A DNA stretch of 64,000 nt from Escherichia coli (GTDB lineage: Bacteria; Pseudomonadota; Gammaproteobacteria; Enterobacterales; Enterobacteriaceae). The DNA lies in the NCBI RefSeq assembly GCF_003334405.1, contig NZ_QOWM01000004.1; one strand, 5' to 3'. The translations under genes were made by a program, and so were the position numbers. Numbering within the stretch: the first letter of the stretch is position 1; every line of letters starts with the position of its first letter. The notes under the pieces were generated by a model. The model did no database searches and was not told the origin of the DNA. It saw only the letters and a program-made list of their open reading frames with translations. Below, in pieces: positions 14,995 through 18,328 of the stretch.

Positions 14995-15687
14995 ATGAAG
15001 GCGTTCGATCTCCACCGTATGGCATTTGATAAAGTGCCTTTTGATTTCCTTGGCGAAGTTGCACTACGTAGTCTTTATACCTTTGTACTGGTCTTTTTGT
15101 TCCTCAAAATGACCGGAAGACGCGGTGTGCGGCAGATGTCGCTGTTTGAAGTTTTAATCATTCTGACGCTGGGATCAGCGGCGGGAGATGTGGCGTTTTA
15201 TGATGATGTGCCGATGGTCCCGGTACTTATCGTCTTTATTACTCTGGCGTTGTTATACCGCCTGGTAATGTGGTTGATGGCGCACAGTGAAAAACTGGAA
15301 GATCTTCTGGAAGGCAAGCCAGTTGTCATTATTGAAGATGGCGAGCTGGCCTGGTCGAAACTCAATAACTCCAACATGACGGAATTTGAGTTCTTTATGG
15401 AGCTACGATTGCGTGGCGTGGAGCAGCTGGGGCAGGTACGTCTGGCGATTCTCGAAACCAACGGGCAAATCAGTGTCTATTTCTTTGAAGATGACAAGGT
15501 GAAACCGGGTTTACTTATTTTACCCAGTGATTGTACGCAGCGTTACAAAGTGGTGCCGGAGTCGGCGGACTATGCCTGTATTCGTTGTAGTGAAATCATT
15601 CATATGAAAGCGGGGGAAAAACAATTATGTCCGCGCTGTGCAAATCCAGAATGGACGAAGGCAAGTCGGGCAAAACGGGTGACCTGA
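14995..15687 (+). CDS. ycaP: DUF421-family membrane protein YcaP
   Basis: ORF 230 aa, MKAFDLHRMAFDKVPFDFLGEVALRSLYTFVLVFLFLKMTGRRGVRQMSLFEV... Confidence 0.88.
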   Translation: MKAFDLHRMAFDKVPFDFLGEVALRSLYTFVLVFLFLKMTGRRGVRQMSLFEVLIILTLGSAAGDVAFYDDVPMVPVLIVFITLALLYRLVMWLMAHSEKLEDLLEGKPVVIIEDGELAWSKLNNSNMTEFEFFMELRLRGVEQLGQVRLAILETNGQISVYFFEDDKVKPGLLILPSDCTQRYKVVPESADYACIRCSEIIHMKAGEKQLCPRCANPEWTKASRAKRVT

Positions 15688-15733
15688 CAGTAAAAACATC
15701 GGCTTTTTGCTAATAATCCGAGAGATTCTTTTG

Positions 15734-15749
15734 TGTGATGCAAGCCACA
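15734..15749. promoter_or_regulatory. CRP-like site upstream of serC
   Basis: TGTGAtgcaagCCACA versus consensus TGTGA-N6-TCACA (9 of 10 half-site positions); about 140 bp upstream of the serC ATG. Confidence 0.3.
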
Positions 15750-15885
15750 TTTTTGCCCTCAACGGTTTTACTCATTGCGATGTGTGTCACTGAATGATAA
15801 AACCGATAGCCACAGGAATAATGTATTACCTGTGGTCGCAATCGATTGACCGCGGGTTAATAGCAACGCAACGTGGTGAGGGGAA

Positions 15886-16974
15886 ATGGCTCAAATCTTC
15901 AATTTTAGTTCTGGTCCGGCAATGCTACCGGCAGAGGTGCTTAAACAGGCTCAACAGGAACTGCGCGACTGGAACGGTCTTGGTACGTCGGTGATGGAAG
16001 TGAGTCACCGTGGCAAAGAGTTCATTCAGGTTGCAGAGGAAGCCGAGAAGGATTTTCGCGATCTTCTTAATGTCCCCTCCAACTACAAGGTATTATTCTG
16101 CCATGGCGGTGGTCGCGGTCAGTTTGCTGCGGTACCGCTGAATATTCTCGGTGATAAAACCACCGCAGATTATGTTGATGCCGGTTACTGGGCGGCAAGT
16201 GCCATTAAAGAAGCGAAAAAATACTGCACGCCTAATGTCTTTGACGCCAAAGTGACTGTTGATGGTCTGCGCGCGGTTAAGCCAATGCGTGAATGGCAAC
16301 TCTCTGATAATGCTGCTTATATGCATTATTGCCCGAATGAAACCATCGATGGTATCGCCATCGACGAAACGCCAGACTTCGGCGCAGATGTGGTGGTCGC
16401 CGCTGACTTCTCTTCAACCATTCTTTCCCGTCCGATTGACGTCAGCCGTTATGGTGTAATTTACGCTGGCGCGCAGAAAAATATCGGCCCGGCTGGCCTG
16501 ACAATCGTCATCGTTCGTGAAGATTTGCTGGGCAAAGCGAATATCGCGTGTCCGTCGATTCTGGATTATTCCATCCTCAACGATAACGGCTCCATGTTTA
16601 ACACGCCGCCGACATTTGCCTGGTATCTATCTGGTCTGGTCTTTAAATGGCTGAAAGCGAACGGCGGTGTAGCTGAAATGGATAAAATCAATCAGCAAAA
16701 AGCAGAACTGCTATATGGGGTGATTGATAACAGCGATTTCTACCGCAATGACGTGGCGAAAGCTAACCGTTCGCGGATGAACGTGCCGTTCCAGTTGGCG
16801 GACAGTGCGCTTGACAAATTGTTCCTTGAAGAGTCTTTTGCTGCTGGCCTTCATGCACTGAAAGGTCACCGTGTGGTCGGCGGAATGCGCGCTTCTATTT
16901 ATAACGCCATGCCGCTGGAAGGCGTTAAAGCGCTGACAGACTTCATGGTTGAGTTCGAACGCCGTCACGGTTAA
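15886..16974 (+). CDS. serC: phosphoserine aminotransferase
   Basis: ORF 362 aa, [46 protein letters not shown]... Confidence 0.97.
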
Positions 16975-16993: not shown

Positions 16994-17023
16994 CCCCACA
17001 GCCAGCCTGTGGGGTTTTTATTT
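16994..17023 (+). terminator. intergenic hairpin with U-tract between serC and aroA (partial terminator or attenuator)
   Basis: 8-bp stem ccccacag / ctgtgggg with loop ccagc, followed by tttttattt. Confidence 0.55.
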
Positions 17024-17044: not shown

Positions 17045-18328
17045 ATGGAATCCCTGACGTTACAACCCATCGCTCGTGTCGATGGCACTATTAATCTGCC
17101 CGGTTCCAAGAGCGTTTCTAACCGCGCTTTATTGCTGGCGGCATTAGCACACGGCAAAACAGTATTAACCAATCTGCTGGATAGCGATGACGTGCGCCAT
17201 ATGCTGAATGCATTAACAGCGTTAGGGGTAAGCTATACGCTTTCAGCCGATCGTACGCGTTGCGAAATTATCGGTAACGGCGGTCCATTACACGCAGAAG
17301 GTGCCCTGGAGTTGTTCCTCGGTAACGCCGGAACGGCAATGCGTCCGCTGGCGGCAGCTCTTTGTCTGGGTAGCAATGATATTGTGCTGACCGGTGAGCC
17401 GCGTATGAAAGAACGCCCGATTGGTCATCTGGTGGATGCGCTGCGCCTGGGCGGGGCGAAGATCACTTACCTGGAACAAGAAAATTATCCGCCGTTGCGT
17501 TTACAGGGCGGCTTTACTGGCGGCAACGTTGACGTTGATGGCTCCGTTTCCAGCCAATTCCTCACCGCACTGTTAATGACTGCGCCTCTTGCGCCGGAAG
17601 ATACGGTGATTCGTATTAAAGGCGATCTGGTTTCTAAACCTTATATCGACATCACACTCAATCTGATGAAGACGTTTGGTGTTGAAATTGAAAATCAGCA
17701 CTATCAACAATTTGTCGTAAAAGGCGGGCAGTCTTATCAGTCTCCGGGTACTTATTTGGTCGAAGGCGATGCATCTTCGGCTTCTTACTTTCTGGCAGCA
17801 GCAGCAATCAAAGGCGGCACTGTAAAAGTGACCGGTATTGGACGTAACAGTATGCAGGGTGATATTCGCTTTGCTGATGTGCTGGAAAAAATGGGCGCGA
17901 CCATTTGCTGGGGCGATGATTATATTTCCTGCACGCGTGGTGAACTGAACGCTATTGATATGGATATGAACCATATTCCTGATGCGGCGATGACCATTGC
18001 CACGGCGGCGTTATTTGCAAAAGGCACCACCACGCTGCGCAATATCTATAACTGGCGTGTTAAAGAGACCGATCGCCTGTTTGCGATGGCAACAGAACTG
18101 CGTAAAGTCGGCGCGGAAGTGGAAGAGGGGCACGATTACATTCGTATCACTCCTCCGGAAAAACTGAACTTTGCCGAGATCGCGACATACAATGATCACC
18201 GGATGGCGATGTGTTTCTCGCTGGTGGCGTTGTCAGATACACCAGTGACGATTCTTGATCCCAAATGCACGGCCAAAACATTTCCGGATTATTTCGAGCA
18301 GCTGGCGCGGATTAGCCAGGCAGCCTGA
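17045..18328 (+). CDS. aroA: 3-phosphoshikimate 1-carboxyvinyltransferase (EPSP synthase)
   Basis: ORF 427 aa, [57 protein letters not shown]... Confidence 0.97.

Follow-up and report, generated by a model that had tools for sequence, protein, structure and literature searches.

An inverted repeat, a CRP-like box and a leader stem-loop upstream of serC in Escherichia coli

The spacer between ycaP and serC in Escherichia coli (198 nt) contains a CRP-like box and a perfect inverted repeat, CCACAGG-N12-CCTGTGG, which raises the question of whether the repeat is an operator, a leader RNA hairpin or neither. The window that we analysed, a stretch of 64,000 nucleotides read on one strand, holds the E. 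coli ycaP-serC-aroA locus, as its open reading frames show:

14995..15687, open reading frame of ycaP
15886..16974, open reading frame of serC, with the ATG at 15886
17045..18328, open reading frame of aroA
15878..15888, + strand, Shine-Dalgarno sequence GAGGGG with the serC ATG (15886), read from the sequence; GTGGTGAGGGGAAATG is nearly invariant in an alignment of 80 loci
15810..15816, left repeat arm CCACAGG, at -2..+5 of the main promoter and in a conserved core block
15829..15835, right repeat arm CCTGTGG, at +18..+24 of the mRNA and within the 5' strand of a leader stem-loop

serC-aroA is a textbook mixed-function operon. Each of the 5,426 complete E. coli genomes has a match to a 271-nt stretch around the repeat, with ycaP and serC as its annotation, and positions 15780..15900 are identical among K-12 strains. 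Control of serC-aroA by Lrp, CRP and GcvB is already published, and the stretch in front of serC is an ordinary, already characterised regulatory region. Our preferred reading, which we hold to be probably correct, is that the CRP site is real, that the palindrome is not a functional unit and that the stem-loop acts in RNA. The outcome has little importance beyond tidy annotation. Its use would be to place the CRP box at -70.5 and not at -86.5, and to mark an eye-catching repeat as a decoy.

Since the numbering of the upstream sites depends on the 5' end that is chosen, we start with the promoter, for which the following features are relevant:

15812, + strand, major transcription start site A (U00096.2 position 956802), giving a 74-nt leader, from the Kim 2012 table and Cappable-seq
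15828, + strand, alternative 5' end, giving a 58-nt leader, the 5'UTR start of a published serC::gfp fusion
15775..15780, + strand, putative -35 hexamer TTGCGA, assigned from its place 17 nt upstream of TAAAAC and from its conservation, not by experiment
15795..15803, + strand, putative extended -10 element TGaTAAAAC, 8 nt upstream of the start at 15812
15817..15822, + strand, AATAAT, a -10-like hexamer in the repeat spacer, from a consensus scan

The supplementary table of Kim 2012 gives the serC start as 956802, with a 5'UTR of 74 nt and an upstream sequence that ends in ...GATAGCCA. Cappable-seq gives the same position with a score of 392, together with two minor sites, one scoring 5.1 (956827) and the other 1.9 (956834). 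Two genome-wide surveys of primary 5' ends, made independently, thus agree on 15812, which is the third base of the left repeat arm. Transcription, whose starting point relative to the repeat had been raised in the original prediction, accordingly has its major start inside the left arm. The sources are nevertheless in conflict, as the construct of a 2025 GcvB study (PMC11878033, Table S4) has a serC insert that begins acctgtggtcgcaatcg..., i.e., with a 5'UTR cloned from A15828. Pairing in the leader stem-loop begins exactly at this position, and the 15828 end could result from processing or mark a minor second start. For serC, the supplements of Conway 2014 and Mendoza-Vargas 2009 yielded nothing, and Table S1 of Latif 2018 is uninformative in that it gives serC-aroA by transcription-unit coordinate only. 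Taking 15812 as the start moves it 16 nt upstream of the 5' end in the GcvB study and renumbers every upstream site.

The best promoter that we infer for 15812 consists of TTGCGA, a 17-nt spacer and the extended -10 element TGaTAAAAC, and coincides with the most invariant blocks of the alignment, ATTGCG and AATGATAAAACCGATA. Within the 80 Enterobacteriaceae loci aligned, ATTGCG is nearly invariant and AATGATAAAACCGAT almost so. A candidate reading of the conserved ACAGGAAUAA 5' end as a CsrA or Hfq (ARN) site was dropped, Salmonella and Enterobacter being without the GGA/ARN pattern.

Our initial model took 15828 as the start and the hexamer within the repeat spacer as the -10 element, and was demoted by the two genome-wide start maps. 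The consensus scan does return ATGATA (15794..15799) and AATAAT (15817..15822), separated by 17 nt, as a possible secondary promoter. If this promoter with its start at A15828 were the relevant one, the repeat would amount to spacer plus initial transcribed sequence, and the stem-loop would stand at the very 5' end as a hairpin stabilising the mRNA. The match to the consensus, the cloning of the 5'UTR from A15828 in PMC11878033, the retention of AATAAT in the three Escherichia lineages examined and the exact coincidence of the first base of the stem-loop with 15828, which leaves no nucleotide unpaired at the 5' end, all agree with such a promoter. However, Cappable-seq has no entry at 956818 (window 15828), the position expected from an AATAAT promoter, and Kim 2012 likewise has 956802; the hexamer reads AATAAC in most other genera, without the critical final T, and the 15828 end may have been produced by processing. 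We therefore regard it as unlikely that this is the promoter that matters; if it were, the numbering would change and the verdict on the repeat would not.

With the start at 15812, the upstream box can be placed:

15734..15749, CRP-like box TGTGAtgcaagCCACA, read from the sequence, with its centre at 15741.5

The box centre lies at -70.5 from 15812, or at -86.5 from 15828. The sequence TGTGATGCAAGCCACA, found exactly where the original prediction had put a CRP-like site, agrees with TGTGA-N6-TCACA in 9 of its 10 consensus bases; it takes the form TGTGA-N6-CCACA and has a T-rich 3' flank. CRP-like sites with at most one mismatch occur four times in the 64 kb, this box being one of them, and by a rough estimate of our own about two would be expected, so by count alone the box is only suggestive. 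It is more than chance because it is conserved across genera. A box with at most two mismatches lies at a fixed 62-63 nt from the GATAAAACC anchor in 73 of the 80 Enterobacteriaceae loci, the best CRP site is 62-63 nt from the anchor in 75 of them, and in Cedecea the consensus is perfect; three exceptions among the 80 loci carry an insertion of approximately 150 nt that pushed the site beyond the 260 nt extracted. In addition, serC is listed among the known cAMP-CRP targets recovered by genomic SELEX, at the level of the region and not of the base. We consider the box to be a genuine and already catalogued site, predicted here at base level.

Class-I CRP sites (TGTGA-N6-TCACA with the centre near -61.5, -71.5 etc., as in lac at -61.5 and malT at -70.5) normally activate transcription. 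The serC box resembles them in its 9/10 consensus match, T-rich 3' flank, centre at -70.5, conserved spacing and recovery by SELEX, but CRP is reported to act negatively on serC, in antagonism to Lrp. This negative effect was reportedly judged to be indirect. A conserved, SELEX-bound site at a class-I-like position sits awkwardly with a negative, indirect effect of CRP; a speculative idea is that CRP interferes with the Lrp activation complex. The title of the 1997 paper by Man, Pease & Winkler, which PMC11878033 cites, agrees with the control of serC-aroA by Lrp and CRP on which the original prediction drew; the negative sign of the CRP effect and its antagonism to Lrp are taken from that title too. 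In the mechanism that we favour, CRP-cAMP would bind the upstream box centred at -70.5, and the promoter would fire at 15812 via TTGCGA and the extended -10 TGaTAAAAC.

A second, weaker CRP-like sequence, TGCGAtgtgtgTCACT, is present at 15776..15791 and overlaps the putative -35 hexamer. Its centre is at -28.5 relative to 15812 and 8 of its 10 positions fit the consensus; GTGTCACTG is conserved in many, not all, genera.

The inverted repeat itself is as described in the original prediction. The arms CCACAGG (15810..15816) and CCTGTGG (15829..15835) are separated by the 12-nt spacer aataatgtatta and match perfectly over 7 bp; the repeat as a whole lies between 76 and 51 nt upstream of the serC ATG (15886). 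How often would such a repeat be expected by chance? Counting perfect 7-bp inverted repeats whose spacer is 0-20 nt long, we find 167 in the 64-kb window, compared to a uniform expectation of 82 and to 96 +/- 12 in first-order Markov simulations. For the 198-nt ycaP-serC spacer, 24% of Markov simulations contain at least one such repeat (P ~0.24), and on its own the repeat is without statistical weight. As a side observation, the window-wide number is approximately 1.7 times the Markov expectation, presumably owing to terminators and REP-like elements.

We next turn to conservation. The left arm is exactly CCACAGG in 34 of the 80 loci and CCACAGT or CCACATG in others, which is explained by the arm being the start-site region; the right arm has no conservation outside E. 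coli. The dyad is perfect in one of the 80 loci, that of the window itself, and has at most one mismatch in five. Among 10 distinct Escherichia alleles, three of the seven dyad pairs vary, all by breaking the dyad and with no compensation at all. Examples are A15814T, found in three sampled E. coli genomes, and the right-arm alleles CCCGCGG (strains GTEN_23 and N96) and CCTGCGG (locus L002). The exact 34-mer that contains the repeat is present in 4,103 of 5,426 E. coli genomes, and 1,117 have one mismatch anywhere in the 34-mer, whether in the arms or not.

These patterns bear directly on the proposal that the palindrome is an operator. In its most explicit form, the dyad would bind a dimeric repressor over the start and the -10 region and so block RNA polymerase. 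One candidate is YeiE, a LysR-type sulfite sensor, and a CRP-dependent repressor, which has reportedly been proposed for serC, would be a second. In common with dyad operators such as lacO1 and those of TrpR, LexA and the LysR family (T-N11-A), the serC repeat is a perfect 7-bp dyad over a start and a -10-like sequence: its left arm occupies -2..+5, and the two arms bracket AATAAT. Were 15828 a true second start, they would flank its -10 at -18..-12 and +2..+8, a position typical of classic operators. Moreover, a region detected for YeiE by ChIP-exo is reported to overlap the RNAP-occupied serC promoter, serC being among the repressed targets, and the left arm is inside a strongly conserved block. 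However, that conservation is accounted for by the start site, and the dyad as a whole differs from the known operators in being unconserved, uncompensated, polymorphic within E. coli (the common alleles A15814T and CCCGCGG destroy it) and statistically expected. Half-sites that are 19 bp apart, centre to centre, are also atypical for LysR T-N11-A boxes. For YeiE, the published text and supplements, as far as they were available to us, give neither its motif nor peak coordinates, and no DNA site is described in the paper on its structure. With the dyad perfect in a single one of the 80 loci, and with variable pairs in Escherichia that only ever break, the operator proposed in the original prediction was not supported, and we think it quite improbable.

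The other half of the original proposal, a leader RNA hairpin, fared differently for the two arms. RNA folds place the right arm in a stable element, to which we refer as stem-loop II:

15828..15857, + strand, leader RNA stem-loop II, ACCUGUGGUCG / loop CAAUCGAU / UGACCGCGGGU, from RNA folds, with 11 pairs of which 3 are G.U

Thus, the right arm does take part in a hairpin, but its real partner lies downstream, at 15847..15857, and not in the left arm. The 74-nt leader folds to the same helix as the leader from 15828. Both strands of stem II are transcribed and the helix (-16.9 kcal/mol) dominates the predicted ensemble, with pair probabilities above 0.99 for the nine inner pairs, 0.84 for the closing pair and 0.55 for the outermost. 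The left arm, by contrast, is cut by the start: from the major start only ACAGG is transcribed, allowing at most five of the seven pairs to form in RNA, and from 15828 none of the left arm is. The truncated repeat helix (5+3 pairs, -3.3 kcal/mol) has an equilibrium probability of approximately 0.003. The repeat therefore fails as a leader hairpin, since its two arms are not both in the transcript, its pair probability is 0.003 and covariation is absent.

The three G.U pairs make stem II a sense-strand-specific structure, which points to RNA and not to a DNA dyad. In the 10 Escherichia alleles taken together, pairing is kept in 97.2% of cells; one-sided changes that preserve pairing affect seven of the 11 pairs, as switches of U.G to C-G or U-A, G-C to G.U, G.U to A-U and A-U to G.U, while three alleles carry one transversion each that breaks one stem II pair. 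The right-arm U>C changes are instructive, as they break the repeat but turn U.G pairs of stem II into C-G pairs and so strengthen it. Double compensations do not occur among these 10 alleles, and the shuffle control was not significant; we take the support within the genus to be suggestive and not proof. The whole E. coli leader is unremarkable in its folding (z ~ -0.9). The apex of the stem-loop, 15839..15848, is in itself a perfect 10-bp palindrome, CAATCGATTG, with a ClaI site; it gives the top of the helix two possible registers and is conserved only within Escherichia.

A reading of this element as an intrinsic terminator or attenuator was ruled out, as no terminator-like site is found between ycaP and serC in 15600..15950 and stem II is followed by UUAAUAGC. 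The search of 15600..16000 with Rfam 15 covariance models returned a chance hit only (E = 2.4), and in five orthologous loci nothing reached the gathering score.

In more general terms, the complementarity of the arms, which is specific to E. coli, could have a function either as an operator of YeiE or another repressor for serC-aroA, or as a co-transcriptional switch between an alternative helix I and stem-loop II. We consider this very unlikely. Were the switch to exist, it would set the decay rate of serC mRNA or its sensitivity to GcvB. Helix I would be a 5'-terminal RNA helix in which ACAGG (+1..+5) pairs with CCUGU (+18..+22), extended by UAA/UUA. It would form first during transcription, or fully on read-through from ycaP, and would affect 5'-end decay or the access of GcvB or the ribosome. 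Five of the seven left-arm bases are indeed transcribed from the major start, and nascent RNA of 24-40 nt has helix I as its best fold (-5.9 kcal/mol). If transcribed from upstream, the full repeat would reach -13.8 kcal/mol (z = -3.4), and the lack of a terminator-like site between ycaP and serC is compatible with such transcripts. Against this, helix I has its equilibrium probability of 0.003 to set against more than 0.99 for stem II, every substitution breaks it, without covariation, and it is absent from other genera, close relatives included. Furthermore, the breaking substitutions strengthen stem II, the opposite of what a selected, balanced switch predicts. Taken together, we find a switch hardly credible. 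Extrusion of a DNA cruciform was dismissed on general grounds, the 7-bp arms being short and the loop 12 nt.

We therefore return to the reading of the palindrome as a decoy that most likely arose as a chance match. The left arm is the start-site region (-2..+5) of a conserved promoter, and the right arm (+18..+24) belongs to the 5' strand of an 11-bp leader stem-loop whose partner is downstream. The complementarity between the arms would then be a chance feature specific to E. coli, giving at most a transient 5-bp helix in nascent RNA. Stem-loop II most likely acts post-transcriptionally, upstream of the putative GcvB site and the Shine-Dalgarno sequence.

What could such a stem-loop do? The 5' hairpin of ompA is reportedly an example of a 5'-UTR stem-loop that stabilises mRNA. 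The serC hairpin resembles stem-loops of this type in its predicted stability (-16.9 kcal/mol), its location near the 5' end, its sense specificity and the retention of structure while the sequence varies. It is unlike them in that stem II is not 5'-terminal on the major 74-nt leader, where a single-stranded tail of 16 nt precedes it; it is 5'-terminal only on the 58-nt species. On that species, whether minor primary or processed, it could be a protective 5'-terminal hairpin. More generally, it could serve as a stable structural module that keeps the stretch bound by GcvB and the ribosome single-stranded.

The candidate GcvB site lies between the stem-loop and the Shine-Dalgarno sequence:

15862..15873, + strand, CA-rich box AGCAACGCAACG, putative GcvB R1 pairing site in the serC 5'UTR

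GcvB represses a serC translational fusion via its R1 seed and lowers serC-aroA mRNA (PMC11878033), and the same study reports an IntaRNA pairing of serC with GcvB nt 72-84. We infer that the GcvB target bases are those of AGCAACGCAACG. As in the GcvB-regulated leaders of dppA, oppA and gltI, a CA-rich stretch is located 5-16 nt upstream of the Shine-Dalgarno sequence and R1-dependent repression is published; the serC box, however, lies beyond the coordinates of the original prediction, and the repeat arms are outside the putative pairing region.

Comparison across genera separates the serC leaders into a short and a long form, with lengths measured from the -10 anchor to the ATG:

Short leaders, 55-58 nt, without hairpin and without CA-rich box: Enterobacter, Kluyvera, Kosakonia, Buttiauxella, Cedecea and others
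Long leaders, 73-109 nt: Escherichia, Salmonella, Citrobacter, Raoultella, Pseudocitrobacter, Superficieibacter, Pluralibacter and others

In our set of loci, the short form comprises L010, L016-L018, L022, L063-L080 and others, and the long form the window, L004-L015, L019 and L059. In the long leaders, hairpins whose sequences are unrelated occupy the same position, one per leader, and each precedes a CA-rich box that takes the form (A/G)ACAACAnnGCAACG. This fold is predicted for every one of the 29 distinct long leaders, with a mean z of -2.5 relative to dinucleotide shuffles. The hairpin sequences of different genera cannot be aligned column by column, and among the long-leader genera it is apparently the structure of the stem-loop that is conserved and not its sequence. 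Stem-loop and CA-rich box come and go together across enterobacterial genera, which is a useful outcome of the comparison, and the dimorphism looks like the modular insertion or deletion of a unit of hairpin plus sRNA target.

Several minor observations were made along the way. Loci L052, L053 and L058, from Raoultella terrigena and two Enterobacter sp. genomes, have the insertion of approximately 150 nt mentioned above, approximately 15 nt after GATAAAACC, where it parts the conserved -10/discriminator from the start-site-proximal block GGAATAAC. The insertion begins GTACCCGTCATACTTCAGG..GCATGTGCG, which we take to resemble an ERIC/IRU element; an inverted-repeat scan of the L052 insertion gave no clear terminal repeats, and there was no Rfam match. 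Two Citrobacter loci (L007 and L024) have CACAGGAATTATCG in the loop of the leader hairpin; it nearly repeats the start-site-proximal CCACAGGAATAAC block approximately 30 nt upstream, a likeness that suggests a local duplication.

Finally, the serC-aroA spacer contains a terminator-like hairpin at 16994..17014 (+ strand), CCCCACAG-ccagc-CTGTGGGG followed by TTTTTATTTC, with the T-run extending to 17024. Internal termination has reportedly been described for the serC-aroA operon, and the hairpin fits it. Its stem happens to have CCACAG/CTGTGG in common with the promoter repeat.
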